Position numbers and translations under genes: made by a program
Part shown: in pieces, positions 1-32,704 of the stretch
Numbering within the stretch: position 1 is the stretch's first letter
Layout of the letters: the number at the start of each line of letters is the position of its first letter
The notes under the pieces: model-generated
What the model was told of the DNA's origin: nothing
The model's input: only the letters and a program-made list of their open reading frames with translations
Database searches by the model: none
IMG/VR virus record: IMGVR_UViG_2778261231_000009
Coordinates: 1-32,704 of that record
Length of the DNA: 32,704 nucleotides
DNA from: a virus
Taxonomy: Duplodnaviria; Heunggongvirae; Uroviricota; Caudoviricetes
Direction: 5' to 3' (one strand)

Positions 1-555
1 AATATTACCGTCTATAGCTATGATGGTGAAACTCGGGAATATATTTCCACTTCAAATGAATATCTTGCCGTTGGTGTTGGTATCCCGGCATATTCCTGTC
101 TGGATGAACCTGGTATACATAAGGCTGGTTATGCAATCTGTCGTTCGGCAGATTTAAACTCATGGGAATATGTGCCAGACCATCGCGGTGAAGTTGTCTA
201 TAACACCGAAACGGGAGAATCAAAAGAAATCACAGCTCCGGGTGATTACCCTGAAAATACAACCACTATCGCCCCGTTAACGCCATACGATAAATGGGAT
301 GGTGAGAAATGGGTGACGGATACCGAGGCACAGCATAGCGCCGCAGTAGACGCAGCAGAAGCACAGCGCCAGTCGCTGATGGATACTGCAATGGCTTCCA
401 TTAGTCTGATTCAGTTGAAATTACAGGCCGGACGGAAGTTGACGCCGGCAGAAACAACCCGACTTAACGCCGTGCTGGATTACATTGATGCGGTGACGGC
501 AACAGATACCAGCACCGCGCCTGATGTCATCTGGCCTGAGCTGCCGGAGGCGTAG
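1..555 (+). CDS. Tail fibre assembly protein (lambda Tfa / Mu U'-like), 5'-truncated by window edge
   Basis: Plus-strand frame 1 is open from nt 1 with no ATG; translation (…VYSYDGETREYISTSNEYLAVGVGIPAYS…SWEYVPDHRGEVVYNTETGE…VTATDTSTAPDVIWPELPEA) resembles lambda Tfa over its length, including the C-terminal DTSTAPD-IEWP-type motif. Track ORF 172..555 is the GTG-started tail of the same frame. Confidence 0.7.
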   Translation, partial: NITVYSYDGETREYISTSNEYLAVGVGIPAYSCLDEPGIHKAGYAICRSADLNSWEYVPDHRGEVVYNTETGESKEITAPGDYPENTTTIAPLTPYDKWDGEKWVTDTEAQHSAAVDAAEAQRQSLMDTAMASISLIQLKLQAGRKLTPAETTRLNAVLDYIDAVTATDTSTAPDVIWPELPEA

Positions 556-979
556 GCCATTCAATATCTGGTGCACTGGAGGTATCAACCAGCTCCAGTG
601 CATCCAGATAATCCAGCCACAAATTATATTGCGCCAGTTCCTCACCTTTCAGACGACCAATAGCGGCTTTACCGGGCCATTGCTTACTGTTCATGTATTC
701 GTTGGCCTGGTTAATTAGTAGCTGTCTTTCTGATTCAGTAATTTCAATAAGCTCTTCATGCGTGGGTGGAGGAATATCTGCCCACGCAGGCAGCCCATCA
801 TCTCCGGCAATACGGATTTTTCCTTGTGGCGGTTCAGCCATAAACTCACTGATAATATTCTGATTTACTTCCTTAGCGTCTGATAAATCCCATCCCTCTG
901 ATTTATATTTATCAATCATATCCACAGGGAAAAAAGCATTATGCCTTGCGCTATAAACATATTCGTTCATATAAATCAC
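527..979 (-). CDS. Tail fibre assembly protein (Tfa / Mu U-like)
   Basis: 150 aa; N-terminal YVYSARHNAFFP and C-terminal LWLDYLDALELVDTSSAPDIEWPTPP are typical of Tfa chaperones. Convergent with, and overlapping by about 29 nt, the plus-strand Tfa-like gene. Confidence 0.8.
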   Translation of the reverse strand: MIYMNEYVYSARHNAFFPVDMIDKYKSEGWDLSDAKEVNQNIISEFMAEPPQGKIRIAGDDGLPAWADIPPPTHEELIEITESERQLLINQANEYMNSKQWPGKAAIGRLKGEELAQYNLWLDYLDALELVDTSSAPDIEWPTPPAAQAR

Positions 980-2228: not shown

Positions 2229-3292
2229 AGCAGCTCTACCTCAACGTTTCCTAATTTGAGCCATTCGACTTTCGTGGCATCGATTATCGGTTGAATATTT
2301 GCCGATGGTGTAACGATGTCATAGTCGGTAATACCCGGAATTAGAGAAATCAATGTCCCCGCCTGGCTGCGAATAAAAGCCACTCCAGGCTCTCGGCGCG
2401 AGTCATCGTCCTCCAGCGTTCCGGCGACAGCCTGTTTGGCTGCTGCGAGGGTGATGCCCTCCAGTGATACCTTCACGAGGACGTCAAATGTACGGATGAC
2501 AGGTATGAGCACCAGCGTGTTTTTTGCTGTAACAGGCCGGACATCGTCAATGTGAGCCTGCACCCTGTCGATCACATCCTGAGATGGCAGCCCACCTGCA
2601 GACGTGATCACAACATCAACGGTACCCGGCCCCCGCCGCAAAGGGTAAACATATGCGGCGGATACGCCTGATACCTCAAGCGCCCAGCGTTTGTAATCAT
2701 ATTTATTGCCGCCTGCAGGAGGTCGGCGGATGATTTCAAGCAGACGAGCAAGCAGCTCTGCATCCGTTTCCTCATCTGTTCCGCCAGTCATCAGGCCTAC
2801 TGTCACTGTGCTGTCAAACCCATCAGGTGTTGTGGTCAGTGTGGCCGATGTGACGGAAGTGGTGTTACCAGTGGTTCCGGCCAGAGAAGACACTGCGTTT
2901 ACCGATGATTTTCCATCTGACCCGACAATAATATCTTCGGTTGTTGTCCACGAAACACTGTCGCGTTTGAACACAAGACCGGCAGCGGCCACCGCTCCTG
3001 GTTCGCCGGTAAACGTGGCAGGCCCGGAGGCGCTGTTGGCTGCTTTTTTGCTTAAACCACGTAAACGGGCGTGCAGATAGAGGAATTCCGAATCAGCAGT
3101 ATCCGGAAAGATCTGACGGACTATCCATCCCTGATGCTGATAAAGCCCCTCGGCAACACTGGCTACACTCGATGCCCGGATGTACCAGTCGCTGTCCGGG
3201 CCCAGCGTATCATCTGACAACTGCAGGAGATTTTTGATATCCCGCAGAATGTCAGTGCGTATTTGCGCGGCATTTTTGGTAATGAATGGCAT
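2225..3292 (-). CDS. Baseplate J-like protein (Mu gp47 / W-like)
   Basis: 355 aa; size and synteny between the gp46-like and gp48-like genes; resembles baseplate J family proteins. Confidence 0.8.
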   Translation of the reverse strand: MPFITKNAAQIRTDILRDIKNLLQLSDDTLGPDSDWYIRASSVASVAEGLYQHQGWIVRQIFPDTADSEFLYLHARLRGLSKKAANSASGPATFTGEPGAVAAAGLVFKRDSVSWTTTEDIIVGSDGKSSVNAVSSLAGTTGNTTSVTSATLTTTPDGFDSTVTVGLMTGGTDEETDAELLARLLEIIRRPPAGGNKYDYKRWALEVSGVSAAYVYPLRRGPGTVDVVITSAGGLPSQDVIDRVQAHIDDVRPVTAKNTLVLIPVIRTFDVLVKVSLEGITLAAAKQAVAGTLEDDDSRREPGVAFIRSQAGTLISLIPGITDYDIVTPSANIQPIIDATKVEWLKLGNVEVELL

Positions 3293-3642
3293 CAGCTGAC
3301 CTTAACCGGATATTTCCAGGTCTGCGGCGTTCCGCTCGCAGACGTGACGGTGATATGAAGCAGCATCCAGCCTTTTTGCCAGTGCTCTGCAGTAACGGAA
3401 ATGGACTGGGCGCGACCGTCGTCAATAATCGGTTGCAGGGCCTGCCGCGAATACTGCACCGCGAGTTGTTGAACGCGAGACACATCCTTTTCGCGGCGGA
3501 GTGTATGCAAAAGAGAGCCCAGAGTTGGATCAGCCCACCATGAGCCAAGGGGCGTCATCAGCCGTAAGTAGACGGCATTCGCTAAAGAGTCTGAGCTGTC
3601 GCCGGTATAATCGCCGGTCGTTGGATCAATCAACATTTCCAT
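3292..3642 (-). CDS. Baseplate wedge protein, GPW/gp25-like (Mu gp46 / V-like)
   Basis: 116 aa; synteny; start codon lies inside an 8-bp inverted repeat and is preceded by the conserved late motif. Confidence 0.75.
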   Translation of the reverse strand: MEMLIDPTTGDYTGDSSDSLANAVYLRLMTPLGSWWADPTLGSLLHTLRREKDVSRVQQLAVQYSRQALQPIIDDGRAQSISVTAEHWQKGWMLLHITVTSASGTPQTWKYPVKVS

Positions 3643-3663
3643 GCCGTAATACTACCGGCATGG
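3639..3663 (-). promoter_or_regulatory. Inverted repeat CCATGCCG-N9-CGGCATGG containing the V start codon; the spacer contains TAGTAT
   Basis: Seen directly on the plus strand (ccatgccgtaatactaccggcatgg). Confidence 0.5.
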
Positions 3664-3678
3664 AAATTTAAATTATCG

Positions 3679-3700
3679 GTGAAGGGGTTCAGTGGGTATT
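3679..3700 (-). promoter_or_regulatory. Conserved late motif, copy 1 (upstream of baseplate gene V): ATACCCACTGAACCCCTTCACC on the coding strand
   Basis: Same core as the other two copies; 24 nt to TAGTAT, then 6 nt to ATG; sits in the 89-bp Q-V intergenic gap. Confidence 0.6.
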
Positions 3701-6853: not shown

Positions 6854-9018
6854 TGCGGGCCTCCTGTTGAGCCGCGAACGGATTGTTCGCCGTTGTATTC
6901 ATTAACAGCTGATGCAATTTCACGTCCGTCTAATACCAGCTTTGTGGTGAGGTTAATTGGTTGTGATTTTTGTTGCTGCTGGGGCAGCAGATAAGACGAT
7001 ACGCCTGTGGTTGCTGGTGTGTTTTGACCCATAGTGGCCGGTGAACTCCACCATGATTTGATCTCATCCACGGCATCCAGCAATCCGGGGCGGGCTTTTA
7101 CTGCATCCAGCATGCGTGCTGACTCACTGGAATAATTGTCGACCTTGAGTCTCGCACGCGCATCAGCATCGCCTCGCTCAACATGAACGAGCGGCGCATC
7201 CTGCATGCCCTGGTAGAGTGCCAGCGGAGCAGCAACGCGCCCCAGAACTTTACCTGCACCACCCCGGATAGCGGACCAGGTGCGCCCCAGAGCAGTACCG
7301 CCAGCAGACGGAACTCCCCCTGCAGGAGAACCAGGCATTTTTATTCCGCCCCCCGTCAGGAAATTGAGCCCGGCAAAAGCTACAGCCGCTGCTGTCATGG
7401 CTTTAATGCCAGTGGTGGCACCTGCAATCGCAGTGGTTAGCCCCGGATACTCACCAGCATATTTGGTTAATTTTTCTGAAATGTCACCCAGTGCATCAGA
7501 TAAAGGGGCAATGGAATCCATTGCAGCAAAGTCCTGTTCGTTTTTTAACTGCCCAGTTTTATATCCCGGCTGTTCTGACATTAAAGCAAAGTTGATGTTA
7601 CCGGCAGTATTACCAACTGGTAAATTACGTTGTGAATTCGCCCCTGAAATTACGTCTTGGGTGTATTTTTTATTCCCTCTATACCCTAATAGAGCTAATA
7701 GCGCCTGCTGGTCAGCAATAATTTTACCTATACCAGAACCTTCAAGAATCCTTGCTTGCGAACTAATTATATTTTTACGTTCACTTTCCGGTGCTGTTTT
7801 GAGTTTATCTTCAAGTTTTTTATATGCTGGATTTGAAGCCACAATTTTATCAACAATCGTGTTAAAAGCTTCTAGAGGATTTATACCGTTACCAACAGCT
7901 TTTGCAAGACTTCCAGAGAGGTCAATTCCTTTACCGCTGGGTAGTTTAATCCGTGCTGCAGCGTTAGCAGCATCCTGACTATTCAGCTTTAGCAATAAAT
8001 TATTAAGGTTATTACCGGCCTCGTCCGGTGAACCTGATGTAATAGCTGACGCCTGGTTCCAGCCAAGCAAGACGGCAAAATCATCAAGACCTTTCATACC
8101 GACATTGCCAGCACTGGCAAGCTGCTTAGGAAGCCACTTAGCCATATCTTTCAATTCAAAAGAGCCACTTTGCCCAGCGCTAATTGCCATATTAAGTGCA
8201 GACTCAAGCTCACCGTCTTTTATGCCAAACGATTGTTTTAATTTTATGGCAATATTTGCCAAATCTTCTGGAGCTGCGCCAGTGGCTGTGGAATATTTTT
8301 GAATTAAAGGTAGCATCACCTTTGCTGACGGCATATCAACAGCCCCTGAAGCCAGCATTGTATCAAGGGTATCAGCTGCTGATTCTTTTGTTCCGCCGCC
8401 AGCACGAACAGCCTGGCGAACCATCGAATCCATCTCCACCATTCCTTTTCTGCGACCTTGCAGCCCTTCATCGGCATAAGCAGTATTGGCCATCATTGCA
8501 AGTCGCTGGCGATAGTCCATCTGTTTAGATACTGGTGTTGATAATACGGCCCCTGCAGCAGCAATCCCGCCAGCAACTGCAGCAACGCTGGAACCAGCAG
8601 CACGAAAGCGCTGCATGCGCGTCATTGAGTCATTCACGCCACCAAGTTCAGTCCGCAGCGTTTTGACCCTGTCAGTCATGGCCCTGAAAGCCCGATTCTG
8701 CTCATTCGCGGACAGCATGCCTGTGCGGGTAAGGCGGTTGTAGGCCGCCATGGTCTGCTGTATTTCACGCTGAATATCGCGCTCAGAACGAATACCAAGG
8801 GTAGATCGCGCCGAGCTGGCGCGACGGTATTCCTCAATCAGAGAACGGGAGGCACGAATCGCTGTGGTTGAGTTCTGCTGGCGGGATTTCGCCAGCTCGT
8901 CATCGGTCTTTTGCGCCGCTTTGGTATCACGGCTGATGCCCTGCAGTGCCTGCTTAAGCACTTTAGAGCCGGTATCACGGGCAAGCAGCTGCAGCGCCAG
9001 TTGTAAGTTACGCGCCAT
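6850..9018 (-). CDS. Tail tape measure protein
   Basis: 722 aa, Ala/Gly-rich with coiled-coil character, immediately downstream of the frameshifted chaperone; contains an AT-rich central segment. Confidence 0.85.
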   Translation of the reverse strand: MARNLQLALQLLARDTGSKVLKQALQGISRDTKAAQKTDDELAKSRQQNSTTAIRASRSLIEEYRRASSARSTLGIRSERDIQREIQQTMAAYNRLTRTGMLSANEQNRAFRAMTDRVKTLRTELGGVNDSMTRMQRFRAAGSSVAAVAGGIAAAGAVLSTPVSKQMDYRQRLAMMANTAYADEGLQGRRKGMVEMDSMVRQAVRAGGGTKESAADTLDTMLASGAVDMPSAKVMLPLIQKYSTATGAAPEDLANIAIKLKQSFGIKDGELESALNMAISAGQSGSFELKDMAKWLPKQLASAGNVGMKGLDDFAVLLGWNQASAITSGSPDEAGNNLNNLLLKLNSQDAANAAARIKLPSGKGIDLSGSLAKAVGNGINPLEAFNTIVDKIVASNPAYKKLEDKLKTAPESERKNIISSQARILEGSGIGKIIADQQALLALLGYRGNKKYTQDVISGANSQRNLPVGNTAGNINFALMSEQPGYKTGQLKNEQDFAAMDSIAPLSDALGDISEKLTKYAGEYPGLTTAIAGATTGIKAMTAAAVAFAGLNFLTGGGIKMPGSPAGGVPSAGGTALGRTWSAIRGGAGKVLGRVAAPLALYQGMQDAPLVHVERGDADARARLKVDNYSSESARMLDAVKARPGLLDAVDEIKSWWSSPATMGQNTPATTGVSSYLLPQQQQKSQPINLTTKLVLDGREIASAVNEYNGEQSVRGSTGGPQ

Positions 9019-14370: not shown

Positions 14371-15486
14371 TTATTTGAGGTATTTCGCGACGCTTTCCGG
14401 GTCATTGCCCATCATGGAGCAGATGGCCGGGTCAATCGCATCATCTTCAGCACCCTGTGACGGGTGTGACGGAAGGCCTGCAGGCGGTTGCCCCTGAGTC
14501 TGACTGGTCGTCAGTGCGGCAATCTTTGGCGCTTTTTCGATAAAGGCGGTAAGACTGGCCGGATCGGATTTCGCCAGTGACGCAGCCCATGCCTGCTGTG
14601 CCGGAAGCAGACGACCGTCGCCGAGGGCAACCGTAATCAACGCTTCAGCCTGTTGCGTGGCGAGTGCGGCGGTATTACCCGCACCTGCACGCTCTGTTGC
14701 CTGCTGAACGGCTGAATGCATGACCTCCACCGAAACCCACTTAGCCGGGTCAGGCGTGTCGAGTTTCGCTGACAGGTCGGCGATGCTCTGCGCGTTCTGG
14801 TTCAGGATATCCAGCAGACTGACCGACGCCGCTGCAGTCCCCTGGCCATTGGAAATCATGGTGATGATTTTTTGCAGCTCAGCCATAATCTCTTCTTTCG
14901 TTGAGGCGGTTGGCAGATTGAGCATCCAGCGCAGGTTGCTCAGTAGCTCATTGAGAAATTCTTCATCCATTTCGGTCTGACCCTCTGTGGTTAAATGCGC
15001 GGCCATCAGGGAGGCGGCAGCAAGTAACACTTCCTCCATCCCGTCCACCGCTGGTGTATTGGTCAGCGCGGCGTTAAGCAACTCCAGTACCTGACCGGTT
15101 TTGTCGTAAGAAAATACGGGGGAAATAAAGCGATACTCTTTCGCCTCGACCATTGCAGCCGCAGCGGCTGTCCACTCGACATCGATGGCGAACAAACCCT
15201 CGCCATCCCGCCACTCCAGCTTTTTGAAGAATGCAGCTGCAGGCGCAGGCAGACCGTTTTTAGCGGCCCGAAGGGTCTGGTGTTCGTAGTCAAGGACATA
15301 GGGGGTGGCGCGGGCATCAGCAGCGGCAATAAGGCGCTCTGCAATTTCCCGCGTCATCAGCCAGGCGGCGCATTCGGTCGGGCGACCATCACGGGCGCGG
15401 AATTCACCAGCCGGAAAGAGCTGAATGACACCGGGAGTAGCGGTGTTAATTTCCTGGGTGAGTGAAGCGATGAGTGTCTTTTTCAT
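14371..15486 (-). CDS. Head protease/scaffold protein (Mu I / gp32-like)
   Basis: 371 aa; synteny; ATG has no Shine-Dalgarno and is abutted by a 7-bp inverted repeat, preceded by the conserved late motif. Confidence 0.85.
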   Translation of the reverse strand: MKKTLIASLTQEINTATPGVIQLFPAGEFRARDGRPTECAAWLMTREIAERLIAAADARATPYVLDYEHQTLRAAKNGLPAPAAAFFKKLEWRDGEGLFAIDVEWTAAAAAMVEAKEYRFISPVFSYDKTGQVLELLNAALTNTPAVDGMEEVLLAAASLMAAHLTTEGQTEMDEEFLNELLSNLRWMLNLPTASTKEEIMAELQKIITMISNGQGTAAASVSLLDILNQNAQSIADLSAKLDTPDPAKWVSVEVMHSAVQQATERAGAGNTAALATQQAEALITVALGDGRLLPAQQAWAASLAKSDPASLTAFIEKAPKIAALTTSQTQGQPPAGLPSHPSQGAEDDAIDPAICSMMGNDPESVAKYLK

Positions 15487-15506
15487 GGTGCCGACGATAC
15501 GGCACC
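15487..15506 (-). promoter_or_regulatory. Inverted repeat GGTGCCG-N6-CGGCACC abutting the I start codon; the spacer is the TATCGT hexamer
   Basis: Seen directly on the plus strand (ggtgccgacgatacggcacc). Confidence 0.5.
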
Positions 15507-15519
15507 ACTGCGGGGAGGT

Positions 15520-15738
15520 TCAGATGAAGAGGTTCAGTGGATTATCGCTGAGGATCGCTTTGGTTGTCGGCTTATCGGGTTTAGCAGACTGACGCCTGCG
15601 GGCAAAGTATCGGTCAGTGAACCACTCAGCAACTTTTATAACCAGCCCCCCTAAGATGCCAATGAAAACCCACTGCTGCGGGGTGAAATAATCAAGGAAA
15701 GCTTTGAATGTGTACAGTTGCCCGCTCCCGTAATGCAT
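15520..15738 (-). CDS. Small predicted membrane protein (72 aa) in the G-I spacer; may not be coding
   Basis: One hydrophobic helix (WVFIGILGGLVIKVAEWF); weak Shine-Dalgarno; its 3' end overlaps the conserved late motif. No gene is expected at this position in Mu. Confidence 0.3.
   Translation of the reverse strand: MHYGSGQLYTFKAFLDYFTPQQWVFIGILGGLVIKVAEWFTDRYFARRRQSAKPDKPTTKAILSDNPLNLFI
15523..15544 (-). promoter_or_regulatory. Conserved late motif, copy 2 (upstream of I): TAATCCACTGAACCTCTTCATC on the coding strand
   Basis: 17-nt core CCACTGAACCNCTTCAY shared with copies at ~3679-3700 and ~23680-23701; 24 nt to TATCGT, then 7 nt to ATG. Confidence 0.6.
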
Positions 15739-15854
15739 TTATGAGCCCAGGCCTTTTTAAACCGCTTTTAAAAACGTCTGAACACCTCTTTGGCGAATCA
15801 CTCTAGCACAATCAGACTGAACGCGTCACAGCGCGTTACAGGACGAATTTGCCC

Positions 15855-22750: not shown

Positions 22751-22979
22751 CGCGCACCTCTCTGGCTCGTTTGATGGACATATGTTTTGATGCCTGACTC
22801 TGAGCCACCCACGCGCCCAGATAGGTGAGATACAGCTCACCAGGAGTTTCGGGGCGGGTAACGGTGAGCCAGACCAGTACGAAGGAACTGACCAGGAAGG
22901 CCAGAAAAACGATGGTGTCTGACGTAGAGAGACGACCGGTGGCCGGGTTCGTCACCAGATCGCGCAGAGATATTTTCAT
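22716..22979 (-). CDS. Small membrane protein, holin candidate
   Basis: 87 aa with one strong helix (IVFLAFLVSSFVLVWLTV); ATG overlaps the endolysin stop. Confidence 0.5.
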   Translation of the reverse strand: MKISLRDLVTNPATGRLSTSDTIVFLAFLVSSFVLVWLTVTRPETPGELYLTYLGAWVAQSQASKHMSIKRAREVRDVGSSPENPEG

Positions 22980-23620
22980 AGCGCCGCCTTAGCGACATTC
23001 AGCCGCGCCACGCGGTCAGCCTGACCTTCAGCCGGAGGGTTGATACGCCGGGTTACGGCCAGAAAATTGCCTTTGTCAGCCAGCTCGTTGCAGCCATTTG
23101 CCTTCCAGTACCAGGCAGCGCTGCGGGCTGCGTTGAGATACTCCAGTAACAAATCGGGATTCGCGATGAGATCGAGGCCCAGCGCCTTACCGCAAAGGCG
23201 GTAATTATTGCGCAGGGTAATCTGAATCAGGCCACGTCCGCGAAAGCGCCAGCCATCGCCTGATGCTTCATTACCGTTACCCCCCTGATTTGCGTAAACA
23301 TAATTCGCCATTTTTTCAGGGTTACGGGTATAGCGTCGGGCAAATTCAATCTCGCAGGGCTCGATAATACGATTCTTATTGAGATCGAAGTCGCTGCGGA
23401 AAATACGCGCCACGCGCTCAGCATCAGAGTAATAGAGATTTTCACTGAGCCGACTGAAACCCGCGCTTTCATGGCCGGTTTGAGCAATAAAGGCGGCAAG
23501 TCTGGCGGGTGTATTAATTTCGAATTCAGCGGTGGCTTTACCGAATGGTTCAAACCATCGTTGCGCCATCACTGGCGAAAGAGCTGCTGCACGCTGAAAT
23601 TGTGGGAGTGTTAAAAGCAT
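22976..23620 (-). CDS. Endolysin, glycoside hydrolase family 19-like (soluble, no N-terminal signal-anchor)
   Basis: 214 aa; …AAFIAQTGHESAGF… and overall pattern resemble GH19 phage lysozymes; first gene after the late motif and a leader hairpin. Confidence 0.8.
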   Translation of the reverse strand: MLLTLPQFQRAAALSPVMAQRWFEPFGKATAEFEINTPARLAAFIAQTGHESAGFSRLSENLYYSDAERVARIFRSDFDLNKNRIIEPCEIEFARRYTRNPEKMANYVYANQGGNGNEASGDGWRFRGRGLIQITLRNNYRLCGKALGLDLIANPDLLLEYLNAARSAAWYWKANGCNELADKGNFLAVTRRINPPAEGQADRVARLNVAKAAL

Positions 23621-23621
23621 A

Positions 23622-23649
23622 ACGCCATCCGGTTAAAAAGGGATGGCGT
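23622..23649 (-). promoter_or_regulatory. Leader hairpin (9-bp stem, 10-nt loop) immediately upstream of the endolysin ATG, covering the GGA Shine-Dalgarno-like bases
   Basis: Plus strand acgccatcc-ggttaaaaag-ggatggcgt; seen directly. Confidence 0.5.
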
Positions 23650-23679
23650 CAGTATTTCATCGGGTTAGGTGAATAATCA

Positions 23680-23701
23680 GGTGAAGAGGTTCAGTGGAAT
23701 T
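23680..23701 (-). promoter_or_regulatory. Conserved late motif, copy 3 (upstream of lysis cassette): AATTCCACTGAACCTCTTCACC on the coding strand
   Basis: Same 17-nt core as copies 1 and 2; about 60 nt upstream of the endolysin ATG. Confidence 0.6.
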
Positions 23702-24200
23702 AGTTGTCAAACTGTACAACAAACTGATCTTTCTCTTCACTGTACCATTTCACTGTATATGAAAACACTCTATCAGAAACAGTCAAGTTACAGTGTCTCA
23801 CTGCATTAACCCGGTCATAACTCATTTGCGCGGGCTCAGAGAATTTTTCTCCATTCAGCAACTCTGTAAGAACAGAATGGACATCGGATGAATCACAGCC
23901 AGGTAAATCACCTTTGTAAAAATTAATCACTGGGGCAATAAATGCTAAAATGAACATCAGGACATAAACTGATAAGGGGCTAACATTTTTTCCGCCCTGG
24001 ACACTACTGGCATCATCCGAGTCTGATAATGCACTTCCGATTAATTTTTTTCTTTTAAATAGATACAATGGAATGACAATGAAGAATATGAATGCTGAAC
24101 CAATCCCCCAACGGGCAGGTCTTGCAATGTTATTGGTGATAGCATCTTTGTAAACAGCAACAGAAGCACCGAATATAATTAAAGCAATTAAAAACTCCAT
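23700..24200 (-). CDS. AT-rich moron: three-helix membrane protein with ~70-aa C-terminal soluble domain, unknown function
   Basis: 166 aa; hydrophobic segments at roughly residues 2-17, 32-48 and 75-95; region visibly AT-rich versus flanks (estimated by eye at high-30s % GC against mid-50s); occupies the slot between the Mor/C-like gene and the lysis cassette. Confidence 0.7.
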   Translation of the reverse strand: MEFLIALIIFGASVAVYKDAITNNIARPARWGIGSAFIFFIVIPLYLFKRKKLIGSALSDSDDASSVQGGKNVSPLSVYVLMFILAFIAPVINFYKGDLPGCDSSDVHSVLTELLNGEKFSEPAQMSYDRVNAVRHCNLTVSDRVFSYTVKWYSEEKDQFVVQFDN

Positions 24201-24213
24201 GTATATTACCTTT

Positions 24214-24648
24214 TTAAAAAAGTTCTTGTTGATTGATTGATGTGTTTTGTCTGTGCTGGCTTAGTAACTGCCATCCAAAACGATCGCTGAATCCATACTT
24301 AGGGCAAAGAAAGGTCATGGCCATAAGAGAGGATGAACCTTGTTCACGCACTTCGGCGAACTCGGCGAGAAAGCGGCGGTTGCGTAATTCACGAAGGGCA
24401 CGATCACAGCGCGGTAAATAGAGAACTTCTCCGCCGAAATTCTTGATGAGTAATTGGGTTTTATCATCGCCGATAGTATTGCGCAGGAGGGCTGCGCGGC
24501 TGGCCCCCATAGCGCGGAGGCCTTTACCTATCGGGAACGTGGTGCCACCAAAAGCAGAAAGAAGCTGCTCGGTCGCCGGGAAGCCTATCAGGTCAGCTAT
24601 TTGAATCACTGCTGATGGCAGCAGCTCCGTTACCTGTTCCAGATTCAT
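24214..24648 (-). CDS. Mor/C-family transcriptional activator
   Basis: Internal start MNLEQVTELLP…; GGEVLYLPRC… and the basic C-terminal half resemble Mu Mor/C; overlaps the 3' end of the GemA-like gene. Confidence 0.7.
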   Translation of the reverse strand: MNLEQVTELLPSAVIQIADLIGFPATEQLLSAFGGTTFPIGKGLRAMGASRAALLRNTIGDDKTQLLIKNFGGEVLYLPRCDRALRELRNRRFLAEFAEVREQGSSSLMAMTFLCPKYGFSDRFGWQLLSQHRQNTSINQQELF

Positions 24649-25069
24649 TATTACGCTCCCGCTTTTTTCGCCGACTCGCATCAATGCTGAGAGCCTGCAT
24701 GAGTTTGGTTAACTGTTCAGTCGTCAACCACTCGATGTATTTGACGTGAAACATATGATCGCACATTTTCTCGGCATAATTCCACGGACGTTTTGCATCT
24801 GCAAGTAATGCGTTAATTTTAGAAAGAATTGACTCGCGCGTATTGGCAACCTTTGGGCGTCGACCGTGTTTTACTGAGTAGCGAGGAAAACCCTTGTCAT
24901 GCATATATTCCATGACAGCCTGCAGCTCGTCGAGGGTGCATTTAGTGGATGATGTTTTACCGTTGCATAAGCGAGACAGAACACTACGGTAGGTTACCTC
25001 ATCCCACCCCAGATATGCCTGACCGGCTTTAATTGCCCCTATAAGGCCTCGTTTTGCTGGCGTGGACAT
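24593..25069 (-). CDS. GemA-like regulatory protein (Mu gp16, DUF1018-type)
   Basis: Internal start MSTPAKRGLIGAIKAGQAYLGWDEVTYRSVL… preceded by a GGAG Shine-Dalgarno; matches the N-terminal pattern of GemA-family proteins. Confidence 0.7.
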   Translation of the reverse strand: MSTPAKRGLIGAIKAGQAYLGWDEVTYRSVLSRLCNGKTSSTKCTLDELQAVMEYMHDKGFPRYSVKHGRRPKVANTRESILSKINALLADAKRPWNYAEKMCDHMFHVKYIEWLTTEQLTKLMQALSIDASRRKKRERNNESGTGNGAAAISSDSNS

Positions 25070-25136
25070 AATATTTCTCCTGTTGGTTGTCATTATCGCA
25101 GGCACTTTATGAAGTGCCTGCTGTAATGACTTACTT

Positions 25137-29478: not shown

Positions 29479-30372
29479 TTAATGGATCAGCATTTCAGCT
29501 ATCTGGTTGACGATATGACCGCTGACCGGAACATCATTCATCGCGCTGGTGCGGACCGCACCGCGCAGCAGCTTGAACAATCGGCGGGCGTTACCTTTTG
29601 ACGCATTGAACAGCGCTTTGCTCAGGTCTTCATTCAGGCCATCCGGGAGAACGCTGCTGGCGATGACGTCAATATCAGCACCCGGCAGGCTATGCCCGAG
29701 GTTGAGGGCGAAACCGACACGGCTATAGAGCTGTACGAGCTCACCGCGTTTGCCCTTGAGGTTCAGAATCAGGCGAGGCATACCAACCAGGACGATGCCG
29801 ATCCCCGTTTTGTCATGGATGCGGCGGATAGATTCCAGCGCACGCAGAGGGAGGTTCTCGGCTTCATCAATAATCAGCACGCGTCCGGAGTCGCGCAGCT
29901 TGTTGATGCAGGCCTCGCTGAGTTCGTGCATATTGCCGCGCGTACTGAGCCCCAGCAGGTTACAGAGCTCTTCCAGGACTACCCGTGCGGTGTAGCCAGG
30001 GTCTGCCTCAATCAGCAACGCATCCCGGTATTTGGAGACGTAGGCTTTGCAAATCATCGTCTTGCCCAGACCGGCTTCGCCGTAGAGCACGTTGATATCA
30101 CCTTCGACGTGTGCCATGCGTATAACATCAACGGCTTTGCGCGTTGTTGGGGTATCAACAAATTTGACGCTGATACGTGCCGAACGTTCTTTTTCATGCT
30201 GACGATCGATAAAGCTACGAATATCGTTTTCCAGCGATACAATATCGCCGTCGTATTTATTATTCAGATACTGGCTGATTACGGCCGAGCTCTTACCAAT
30301 GGCGCGGGCGACCTGTGTCTGGTTAAGACCTTTTGCTTTCATCAGTTCGACAAGTTCATTTTTAGCTGACAT
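29479..30372 (-). CDS. B: Transposition ATPase / target DNA activator (Mu B-like, AAA+)
   Basis: 297 aa; N-terminal HTH-like region (LNQTQVARAIGKSSAVISQYLNNKY), Walker A GEAGLGKT, Walker B-like VLIIDEAE; directly downstream of the transposase. Confidence 0.85.
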   Translation of the reverse strand: MSAKNELVELMKAKGLNQTQVARAIGKSSAVISQYLNNKYDGDIVSLENDIRSFIDRQHEKERSARISVKFVDTPTTRKAVDVIRMAHVEGDINVLYGEAGLGKTMICKAYVSKYRDALLIEADPGYTARVVLEELCNLLGLSTRGNMHELSEACINKLRDSGRVLIIDEAENLPLRALESIRRIHDKTGIGIVLVGMPRLILNLKGKRGELVQLYSRVGFALNLGHSLPGADIDVIASSVLPDGLNEDLSKALFNASKGNARRLFKLLRGAVRTSAMNDVPVSGHIVNQIAEMLIH

Positions 30373-30417: not shown

Positions 30418-32475
30418 TCAGAAGGTCGCTTTTTTATTGCCCTGACTTTTCAGCCATTCTTCACGCTCTGATTCGAACAGGAACACATGTTCCCGAGCAT
30501 CATTAATACGCTCTGCGTCCGATGGTATTAATGCGCCGAAATCAGGGTACATATCGCTTTCAGGAAGCAGGCCTCTTGCCTCTGCTTCAATCTCTTCCCG
30601 TTGTTCGTCGATGCGCTTCAGACGACGCTGGCGACGTTTCTCAACGGCGATATCCATCATGCTGGTTGGCAGCGCGGCACGCTTATTGCCGTTCCAGATG
30701 GCGGTGCAGACATAAGTACCGTCCATGCGACGAACGATGACGGCAGCAGGGTCGTGAATGTCATAGGCGACCCGGACTTCCTCACCGTCGACCTGTATCA
30801 GGTCAGCGCTGAAATACTGGTTATTCATCAGGTCAATCCAGCCCCGCTGGGCGGTGCGGCACATTTCCGGCATGAAGGCTTCACGAAGCTCGATATCCGT
30901 CAGATATTCAATATCGTCACCCTCAGTGGCCAGAACCTCGCGGCGGTACTGTGCTGGCGTCATATGCACACCATTACGTTTTGGTAGCTCGCTGTGCTCA
31001 TGCAGGTTGTTGTATTTGTCGACTTCCTCAGCAATGGTATCCAGCAGCATCTGCCACGACGGCAATTTACGCAGCGCGTTACGCTGTACGCTCGTGAGTT
31101 CGCGCCCATTCTCCTGAGCCTTAATCGCTGACTGGATAGCGCGACCGGTCATCCGCACATGCTCACGGTCGGCCCCGAATCCATTGTAAGTATCAAATTT
31201 ATTGGCAATCGCTCTCGGTATTACGGCGTTCAGTCGTTCGATAATCCCGCGTGACTGCGGTCGACCCGGAATACTGGTCGGGTGATCAATACCCATGCGA
31301 GTGAAAATACCGGTGATATCAGCATCCAGCGTTTTATTGGTTTCACCGCCACCGTTATCCGAATAGACAAAAAGAGGTTTTCCGTGGAATTTCATGGCGT
31401 AGCGATAGGCATCCGCTACGGCGATGACGTTCTCTGAGAGCGCCAGGCTCCAGCCCACCAGGTAGCGGGTGCGGCCATCGATAACCAGCGTCAGTTCAGG
31501 TGTGAATGGACGACCATGGACCGGATGAGCAACTTTCATATCCAGCGATTTACCATCCGCAATCCAGCAACCATTTACTGGCATTTGTGACCAGTCACGC
31601 TTCTGATAAACCTCATAAGCCAGAGCCGCTGAACCGCTGATACGGCCGCGAGCGCGTTCACGTTTTGGTAGCTTTTCCATCGCCCGACGCACGGCATCAT
31701 AAGACGGACAGACGGCGAGCATCGCTGGCTGTCCCGCATAAATAGCCTGCCATTCAGTCTTGAATGAGCGCCACGCATCCACCAGAGAAGGGCCTGAGAG
31801 TTTCCGCCAGTGGGCGAGAAAATCAGGGAGCCACTTAATCTGCTCAGGCTTACGCGCTTTAAGATGGCCTGGTGCCAGCAAAGCCAGGCGTTCGATACCT
31901 GGACGTGTAGAAAGGTAAACAGACAGCCATTCCTGAAGTGTTCTTTCGCCCACGCCACGACGGCTGGAACCTTTACGCGCATTGGCAATATCAGCCGCAG
32001 CCTGGATGTTTTCCGGCAACGTGCCCTTGCGTGACTCTTTGGCGATGAACTCAACCGCCGATGCGCGTGACATACCGATATCCCGAAGACGCTCAACCTC
32101 TGCGGCTAATAATGCGCGGGCGTCGGCGATCTGTTTCTGGCGTTCGGTAAGGTCAGAGACCTCACGCTCCAGCAATACCGGGCACTGCCGCAATAACGTC
32201 AGTTCGTCGCGGGTCGTGGTGACTTCCCGCTTTGGTGCAGTCGGCGCTGATGAACAATCAGACTGTTTCAGCACCTCGCGATAATGCCGGGCTTTGACTA
32301 TTTCACGCGCCTGTTCAGGCAGGCAGTCGATGTGGTACTCGAATGCTTTGCTGCCAGCACGTTTGCGAACCAGTTCAGGGGAGTTGCCTGCACTTTTTTT
32401 AAGGCTGTATCGCAGTCCTTGTTGTGTTGTTGGCAGTCCAGGGACGCCAACTAATTCGTTAACAGTCACGAACAT
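30418..32475 (-). CDS. A: DDE transposase (Mu A-like)
   Basis: 685 aa; N-terminal DNA-binding region, central integrase-like catalytic core; resembles MuA; ATG overlaps the ner stop. Confidence 0.9.
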   Translation of the reverse strand: MFVTVNELVGVPGLPTTQQGLRYSLKKSAGNSPELVRKRAGSKAFEYHIDCLPEQAREIVKARHYREVLKQSDCSSAPTAPKREVTTTRDELTLLRQCPVLLEREVSDLTERQKQIADARALLAAEVERLRDIGMSRASAVEFIAKESRKGTLPENIQAAADIANARKGSSRRGVGERTLQEWLSVYLSTRPGIERLALLAPGHLKARKPEQIKWLPDFLAHWRKLSGPSLVDAWRSFKTEWQAIYAGQPAMLAVCPSYDAVRRAMEKLPKRERARGRISGSAALAYEVYQKRDWSQMPVNGCWIADGKSLDMKVAHPVHGRPFTPELTLVIDGRTRYLVGWSLALSENVIAVADAYRYAMKFHGKPLFVYSDNGGGETNKTLDADITGIFTRMGIDHPTSIPGRPQSRGIIERLNAVIPRAIANKFDTYNGFGADREHVRMTGRAIQSAIKAQENGRELTSVQRNALRKLPSWQMLLDTIAEEVDKYNNLHEHSELPKRNGVHMTPAQYRREVLATEGDDIEYLTDIELREAFMPEMCRTAQRGWIDLMNNQYFSADLIQVDGEEVRVAYDIHDPAAVIVRRMDGTYVCTAIWNGNKRAALPTSMMDIAVEKRRQRRLKRIDEQREEIEAEARGLLPESDMYPDFGALIPSDAERINDAREHVFLFESEREEWLKSQGNKKATF

Positions 32476-32476
32476 G

Positions 32477-32704
32477 TCACAGGTCCTTGTTGTAACGGCT
32501 TGGCCAGATACTGGCGGGTTCTAAATTGAGAGCATTTGCAATAATGCGCTCTCCTTTTGGATAAGAGCGTGCCAGCGCATTTTTCAGCGTGTCGGGTTTT
32601 AGTCCCGCGCTGGCGGAAAGGCCGCGCATAGTGACGCCACGCTTGTGCAGCTCGGCGACAATATCAATGCGATGCCAGTCACGCTGTACTTCATTTATTT
32701 CCAT
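32477..32704 (-). CDS. ner: Ner-like DNA-binding regulator
   Basis: 75 aa, same length as Mu Ner, with shared …RDWHR-D…L-K…GLS…TL-NAL-R--PKGE-IIANAL…IWPSRY… pattern; its ATG is the last three bases of the window. Confidence 0.85.
   Translation of the reverse strand: MEINEVQRDWHRIDIVAELHKRGVTMRGLSASAGLKPDTLKNALARSYPKGERIIANALNLEPASIWPSRYNKDL

Follow-up and report, generated by a model that had tools for sequence, protein, structure and literature searches.

The stretch of DNA analysed here (the window, 32,704 nt) is a Mu-like prophage with its genes on the minus strand and a G+C content of 53%. [quoted passage not shown] The product of this gene is proposed, with a probability of about three in four, to activate three late operons directly in a two-step lytic programme. 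The gene content of the window, the family membership of its Mor protein and the fixed geometry and conservation of a motif at three late promoters were observed directly. From these we infer the binding of Mor, the activation of the promoters and its timing. In the proposed programme the early operon (ner, A, B ... gemA, mor) would end with the single activator gene. Mor would bind the dyad TGAA-N4-TTCA within the motif CCACTGAACCYCTTCA, centred approximately 43.5 bp upstream of the predicted transcription starts. It would recruit sigma-70 RNA polymerase at three promoters that have a -10 hexamer and a poor -35, as Mor and C do in Mu. These promoters would head a lysis/terminase/head operon, an operon running from protease I to the tail genes and a baseplate/fibre operon. 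Neither a middle operon nor a second activator would take part.

Features lie on the minus strand unless stated otherwise, and genes are described from high to low coordinates. The ner gene (32477-32704) is followed by the MuA-like transposase gene (30418-32475), the MuB gene (29479-30372), a run of small early genes and a GemA-like gene encoding 158 aa (24593-25069; Pfam PF06252, E = 8e-20). The mor gene comes next (24214-24648). The lysis/terminase/head operon is led by a GH19 endolysin gene (22976-23620), identified by Pfam (PF00182) and by the PGAP annotation of a relative. After the endolysin come the spanins, DUF1804, TerL, portal, F and G, and then a gap of 368 nt before the Mu I-type protease/scaffold gene I (14371-15486; Pfam Mu-like_Pro), which leads the second late operon. 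The annotated starts of three relatives agree on the same ATG for gene I. Beyond it lie the genes for the major head protein, sheath, tube, tape measure, baseplate and tail fibre. The third late operon is led by a gp46-like baseplate gene (3292-3642), annotated by PGAP as 'phage GP46 family protein' in a relative.

The closest deposited phage to this lineage is Klebsiella phage ST405-OXA48phi1.1, and megablast of the region against phages returned only one match, of 750 bp. A prophage of E. coli FDAARGOS_1303 is 94% identical to the window and complete. It sits between two halves of ydbL and ends directly after a Gin-like recombinase gene. PGAP annotated one Mor gene and no com/mom in it. Caudo_TAP tail-fibre assembly genes are found on both strands at the end of the window (527-979 on the minus strand and 172-555 on the plus strand, within window positions 1-979). 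Their presence on both strands suggests an invertible host-range segment, like the G segment of Mu, within which the window ends. A Gin-like recombinase adjoins this region in the E. coli relative.

The mor gene encodes a protein of 144 aa and was identified by Pfam, PHROG, hhalign and a family alignment. It starts with an ATG at 24648, preceded by the Shine-Dalgarno sequence GGGAG 7-8 nt upstream. The first-pass annotation had described this ORF as overlapping the GemA-like gene, and indeed the first 56 nt of mor also form the 3' end of gemA. PGAP gives the two genes this overlap in the 94%-identical E. coli prophage as well. The protein matched Pfam PF08765 with 34.9 bits (cut-off 24.9, E = 1.6e-8) and PHROG 836, 'late transcriptional activator', with E = 1.8e-39. 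Mu Mor and Mu C also matched PHROG 836 (1e-10 to 1e-11). Close homologues form approximately 117 clusters in Enterobacterales prophages, most of them named 'Mor transcription activator family protein', and the wider Mor family comprised 1419 representatives (50% clustering, E <= 0.001). In Klebsiella phage ST405-OXA48phi1.1 (MK388859, L005) mor lies at 8340-8771 and its product is 74% identical to window Mor. That record leaves it unannotated, with an empty interval between gemA and the following ORF. The ORF at 24214-24648 can thus be annotated as the late activator gene, and the three late promoters described below can be marked to base-pair precision.

The architecture of window Mor fits the family, which has an N-terminal helical dimerisation part, a beta-strand linker GGxxxYIPR and a C-terminal helix-turn-helix in approximately 130-150 aa. 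Its beta-linker is FGGEVLYLPRC and its C-terminal helix-turn-helix is LCPKYGFSDRFGW. In hhalign alignments the linker paired with LGGGQVYIPRG of Mu Mor and LGGRQFYIPCG of Mu C, and the helix-turn-helix regions also aligned. An AF2 model (pLDDT 83) consisted of helices with short strands at residues 36-40 and 74-78, followed by three C-terminal helices. The homology to Mu Mor and Mu C is remote (20-25% identity). When the single Mu Mor and Mu C sequences were searched by phmmer against the six-frame translation of the window, the top matches were to the mor ORF and were insignificant (E = 2-4), so profiles were needed. A narrow profile built from 23 close homologues did not reach Mor or C among the PDB sequences.

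The C terminus of window Mor (24214-24228) is QQELF, and the family consensus at the extreme end is Q-x-(S/E)-L-F. Residues Q140, L143 and F144 were conserved in at least 90% of an alignment of 23 homologues. Motifs that bind the beta sliding clamp have been described as an N-terminal Qx[DE][LM]F, a C-terminal QPDLF-like sequence or both, and the C-terminal QPDLF motif is needed for the function of Mu C (PMC12867686). By the sequence criterion Qx[DE][LM]F no N-terminal clamp-binding motif was found in window Mor. Its conserved C-terminal motif suggests that window Mor may contact the clamp as Mu C does. A possible internal repeat was seen in the N-terminal half of the protein, in which residues approximately 19-40 and 57-78 (TEQLLSAFGGTTFPI and KTQLLIKNFGGEVLYL) would each form a helix followed by an FGGxxx-strand unit; the match is weak (hhalign E = 5e-4, probability 31%). 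Two loci (L015 and L016) encode Mor-family variants of 233-240 aa with an extra N-terminal part, and no Mu-like genes were present within 10 kb of them.

The first-pass annotation had found only one Mor/C-like ORF between the early genes and the lysis genes and had proposed a profile search of the small ORFs for a second. This search has now been made, and the finding holds for the whole window rather than for that interval alone. Apart from mor, the window has 224 stop-to-stop ORFs of at least 60 aa, counting both strands, and every one was scanned against Pfam together with Mu Mor and Mu C as positive controls. Each batch contained exactly three Mor-family matches, namely the window ORF and the two controls. 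A custom profile was also made from 126 diverse representatives of the family, with the Mu proteins left out, and was run against a six-frame database. It detected both Mu proteins (Mu C, E = 1.4e-6; Mu Mor, E = 1e-4). With this profile there was one match in the window, one in each of 15 related loci and two in Mu. The complete phages ST405-OXA48phi1.1 and VW-6B and the E. coli FDAARGOS_1303 prophage had one match each. In a phage collection 135 records matched window Mor, each at one place (135 places). Mu C was matched by 54 records, 14 of which had matches at two places; these 14 were Mu, D108, SfMu and near-identical phages.

The motif CCACTGAACCYCTTCA is carried by three late promoters, located upstream of the endolysin gene, protease gene I and the gp46-like gene. 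The motif search was done by fuzzy matching, as the window contains a CCTC variant. The three late motifs to which the earlier annotation had pointed proved to be real. The 21-mer CCACTGAACCTCTTCAYCTGA occurs as two exact copies in the window (23697-23677 and 15540-15520), where none would be expected by chance, and a third copy, at 3680-3695, has one mismatch. Late motif 1, CCACTGAACCTCTTCACCTGA (23677-23697), is the proposed Mor site of the lysis-operon promoter. Late motif 2, CCACTGAACCTCTTCATCTGA (15520-15540), lies upstream of protease gene I. Late motif 3, CCACTGAACCCCTTCACCGA (3676-3695), is the copy with the mismatch and lies between the gp45-like and gp46-like genes. A literature search for the motif string returned no description of it for this lineage.

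Each motif is followed by a -10-like hexamer, which starts exactly 41 nt past the motif's first C. The hexamers are AATACT at the lysis promoter (23651-23656), TATCGT at the I promoter (15494-15499) and TAGTAT at the gp46 promoter (3649-3654). In the window and 12 related genomes from at least seven genera, the motif start is followed at 41 (±1) nt by the start of a hexamer whose second base is A and whose sixth is T, and the sequence of the spacer between motif and hexamer varies. The loci with this geometry came from Klebsiella, Kosakonia, Serratia, Yersinia, Pectobacterium, Symbiopectobacterium and a 'Martelella' assembly, and the geometry was also present in Klebsiella phage ST405-OXA48phi1.1 and Pseudomonas phage VW-6B. 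At the lysis promoter nATACTG is kept in all relatives. A hexamer at a fixed distance across a variable spacer is the signature of a promoter. Transcription starts were predicted from the -10 alone. With the hexamer taken as -12 to -7, the dyad TGAA-N4-TTCA is centred at approximately -43.5, upstream of a poor -35 (CTGAnn). We take the Mor and C sites of Mu to be centred at -43.5 as well. The Mor/C site has been described as an imperfect dyad just upstream of a non-optimal -35 in a cryo-EM preprint (bioRxiv 10.1101/2025.05.02.651988), the text of which contains neither '43.5' nor 'centered'. The position of the three motif copies fits that at which an activator of the Mor/C type would bind, making them candidate sites.

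The motif varies between genomes, and the copies within one genome change together. Klebsiella phage ST405-OXA48phi1.1 has CCACTGAAGCCCnTCA at all three sites (with GAAGCCC). Klebsiella sp. MISC125 has CCACTGACAyCCkTCA at both sites (with GACAYCC) and VW-6B has GTGACGAACCCCGTCC at both sites. These motif changes accompany substitutions in the cognate Mor proteins, from GGEVLYLPRCD to GGFPLYLPRCE in the beta-linker and from SDRFGW to SDRTGW in the recognition helix. Concerted motif variants together with cognate Mor substitutions suggest that the motif is read by a phage-encoded protein, for which Mor is the obvious candidate.

Between mor and the lysis cassette there is only one ORF. It encodes a predicted membrane protein of 166 aa (23700-24200; 38% GC), starts 13 nt past the mor stop and is followed by a gap of 79 nt. 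The product had no match in Pfam or PHROG, and no motif or promoter was found between the mor stop and this ORF. In the relatives (L005-L018) the slot is 300-550 nt long with 34-41% GC and contains unrelated ORFs. The VW-6B slot is only 23 nt long and the ORF is absent. By these comparisons the slot ORF is cargo, neither a regulator nor conserved, and the slot holds no middle operon.

A sister lineage with two Mor paralogues was found when IMG/VR was searched for the lysis-promoter pattern (motif, 24-26 nt, WATACTG). The pattern was present in 42 contigs and a Mor gene lay just upstream in all except L026, a contig that begins at the motif. Approximately 15 of the 42 contained a second Mor-family gene, mor2 (approximately 150 aa, approximately 35% identical to mor1), in the slot behind that promoter (L023, L025, L026, L028, L029, L033, L039, L043, L046, L049, L050, L052, L053, L055 and L061). 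Compared with the window, this sister lineage is approximately 65% identical in MuA and 70% in TerL. It resembles the window in its gemA-mor synteny, its motif-to-(-10) geometry and its gene I ATG 6-7 nt past the -10. Its gene order is gemA, mor1, motif A promoter, mor2, motif B promoter and lysis genes. Motif A, CCACTGAACCCCTTCA (begins CCACTGAAC), occurs in the sister lineage before mor2 only. Motif B, (C/G)TGCTGAACCCCnyCAA, is found there at the promoters of the lysis genes and of I, again in the 41-nt geometry. The two motifs differ mainly in three bases, CCA versus sTG. The box before mor2 should, by analogy, be read by mor1, and the arrangement of genes and boxes looks like an independent, Mu-like three-step cascade.

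In the window every late promoter carries an A-type box. The window contains no mor2, and motif B had only chance-level matches in it. With motif A found only before mor2 and motif B at the late promoters of the sister lineage, this is the pattern expected if window Mor acts on the late promoters directly. Window Mor is 40-45% identical to mor1 and 39-42% identical to mor2, and a neighbour-joining tree was indecisive on orthology. The PRC and SDRFGW motifs of window Mor are nearer those of mor2, yet its DNA motif resembles the box before mor2, the expected reader of which is mor1. Mor and C of Mu form a pair of their own (40% identical to each other), and this pairing indicates that the duplication in Mu was a separate event. 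The one-activator and two-activator sister lineages, with their related and distinct boxes, offer a natural system for the study of how duplication of an activator adds a timing tier. The contrast can also be used to examine how DNA specificity is encoded in the Mor/C family.

The proposed programme was compared with that of Mu, in which Pe leads to mor, Mor acts at Pm, and C acts at Plys, PI, PP and Pmom, with three small genes and C between Pm and Plys. The activators belong to the same protein family, and mor ends the early operon directly after gemA in both phages. Late promoters in both have a -10, a poor -35 and a common activator box just upstream, and the AACCCC core of the window box resembles CATAACCCC, which is conserved at the C-dependent promoters of Mu. 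The first two late promoters are equivalently placed, one before the lysis genes and the other before I. The C-terminal QxxLF of window Mor is like the clamp-binding motif of C. Among the features of the three-step programme, late promoters with a shared box, a -10 and no good -35 are present in the window, whereas two paralogues and a middle operon are absent. The window also lacks a fourth promoter and com/mom, whereas Pmom lies at the far right end of Mu. Its box is TGAA-N4-TTCA, compared to TTAT-N5-6-ATAA in Mu, and its third promoter precedes the gp46-like gene, compared to a location inside N in Mu. The start codons of I and gp46 are 6-7 nt past the -10, whereas the Mu genes have leaders with ribosome-binding sites.

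A closer counterpart is found in phages with a single activator. C and the middle genes are absent from SuMu and Mannheimia phages according to a 2015 paper, and SuMu, vB_MhM_3927AP2 and phiMhaMu2 have the same gene order as the window (PMC4553209). The activators of SuMu, 3927AP2, phiMhaMu2, the D3112/DMS3-like phages of Pseudomonas and Ralstonia RS138 belong to the same subfamily as window Mor (PHROG 836; 36-46% identity) and are named 'late transcriptional activator' in RefSeq and PHROG. As in the window, they are encoded by a single copy per genome, and mor is followed by the lysis genes without C. The defining arrangement of the SuMu/3927AP2 type, with one homologue after gemA and then a lysis cassette lacking C, is present in the window. 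The window lineage differs in being enterobacterial and in having a cargo slot of one ORF between mor and the lysis promoter. The one-activator design is common among transposable phages, and it is the two-activator Mu and its closest relatives that are exceptional. The two-tier cascade proposed in the first-pass annotation is supported by the comparative sequence data, namely one homologue, no middle operon, the motif geometry, the co-variation of motif and activator and the pattern in the sister lineage. The difference from Mu arises only because Mu itself is atypical, and the arrangement had already been described for SuMu, 3927AP2 and phiMhaMu2 (PMC4553209). The single-activator idea is not new; it restates a known, common design of which the window is a further case.

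Other explanations of the late motifs were weighed against direct activation by Mor. The late promoters could be read by a different factor. This might be a host protein or an unrecognised phage regulator outside the Mor/C fold, for example GemA or one of the small early proteins; in either case Mor would act elsewhere and a third tier would be hidden. Several early ORFs of the window had no function assigned by Pfam or PHROG, the annotated early genes of the E. coli relative include an ANR-family regulator, and GemA always adjoins and overlaps mor. Against these points, the slot between mor and the lysis promoter holds non-homologous cargo and is empty in VW-6B, so no conserved regulator is present there. 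Only a few early genes (ner, A, B, gemA and mor) are common to every relative that carries the motif, and the position of the sites suits activators of the Mor/C type. A host factor would leave the genome-specific, concerted motif variants unexplained. Reading of the late promoters by another factor was judged unlikely. Somewhat less likely still is that the repeat is no activator site and that late genes are expressed by read-through from the early promoter, possibly with antitermination, with the motif and hairpins acting on RNA or in another process. There is no strong terminator in the window between the slot ORF and the endolysin gene, and a hairpin follows each motif, both of which would suit read-through. 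The conserved -10 hexamer at a fixed distance across a variable spacer and the DNA-dyad-like form of the motif speak against it, and the hairpin that follows the -10 is, in relatives, a genuine terminator with stem and T-run, which would block read-through.

It could also be that a second Mor/C gene lies outside the 32.7-kb window, past the tail-fibre end or beside the repressor. The window stops inside the tail-fibre region and at the start of ner, and Mu has its C-dependent Pmom at the far right end. The complete, 94%-identical E. coli prophage nevertheless has one Mor gene and no com/mom, which makes a second copy outside the window very unlikely, and the complete genomes of the two related phages also gave one match each. 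Direct activation of the three late operons by the single Mor was preferred.

Each of the late promoters is associated with a hairpin. At the lysis promoter the hairpin GACGCCATCC-N10-GGATGGCGT (23622-23650), identified by a consensus fold, starts right after the -10. Its anti-Shine-Dalgarno sequence GCCATCC pairs with the endolysin Shine-Dalgarno sequence GGATGGC in the 3' arm. Compensatory changes were found in five of the 11 pairs in the consensus fold of 10 relatives. The calculated differences in accessibility were modest in the window (0.65 versus 0.75). In VW-6B, in L011 and before mor2 of the sister lineage, the hairpin stem is followed by a T-run. At the I promoter TATCGT forms the loop of a hairpin GGTGCCG/CGGCACC (15487-15506), and the gene I ATG (15486) is 7 nt past the hexamer. 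At the gp46 promoter a hairpin at 3636-3666 has TAGTAT in its loop and the gp46-like ATG (3642), 6 nt past the hexamer, in its 3' arm. The I and gp46 start codons are 6-7 nt past the -10 in every relative examined (L005, L006, L007, L009, L011, L012, L014, L017 and L018 at PI and PP), and the annotated starts agree. This spacing predicts that the I and gp46-like mRNAs are leaderless.

The lysis hairpin may be a terminator of the early operon or a translational lock from which promoter-initiated RNA, lacking the 5' arm, escapes. In phage T4 the early transcripts of the lysozyme gene e mask the ribosome-binding site in a hairpin, and late promoters start within the hairpin. The lysis-promoter hairpin of the window and its relatives is similarly predicted to cover the ribosome-binding site in read-through RNA and to leave it uncovered in promoter-initiated RNA. 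It differs from T4 gene e in that the hairpin looks like a terminator instead in some relatives. A broader proposal, to which we give a little less than even odds, is that expression of the first gene of each late operon needs initiation at the Mor-dependent promoter and that two-step and three-step cascades have repeatedly replaced each other among Mu-like phages. If so, any read-through RNA would have its I and gp46 start codons buried in hairpins. For the endolysin gene, a terminator-like anti-Shine-Dalgarno hairpin would hide the ribosome-binding site except in transcripts begun inside that hairpin. The cascade would switch through gain or loss of an activator gene in one cargo slot together with retuning of a 3-bp part of the box (CCA versus sTG).

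Some further elements were observed before gemA and between G and I. A perfect 10-bp stem-loop, GCAGGCACTT-N4-AAGTGCCTGC (25098-25121), follows the early ORF that precedes gemA and stands ahead of the gemA ribosome-binding site; L007 has a similar hairpin, GCAGGCACT...AGTGCCTGC, ahead of its gemA. The gap between G and I contains a small ORF of 72 aa (15520-15738) with a weak match to a PHROG holin family (E = 2.2e-6). This ORF ends at the TGA within late motif 2. PGAP instead calls an opposite-strand ORF at this place in the E. coli relative. The same gap contains GTTTTTAAAAGCGGTTTAAAAA (15754-15775), which is kept with up to four mismatches in relatives from Klebsiella, Serratia, Kosakonia and 'Martelella' and in Pseudomonas phage VW-6B. 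Mu has ATTTTTTAAAACGCG... at the equivalent genomic place, adjoining its strong gyrase site, and the GTTTTTAAAAGCGGTTTAAAAA element may be a counterpart of the central gyrase site of Mu.
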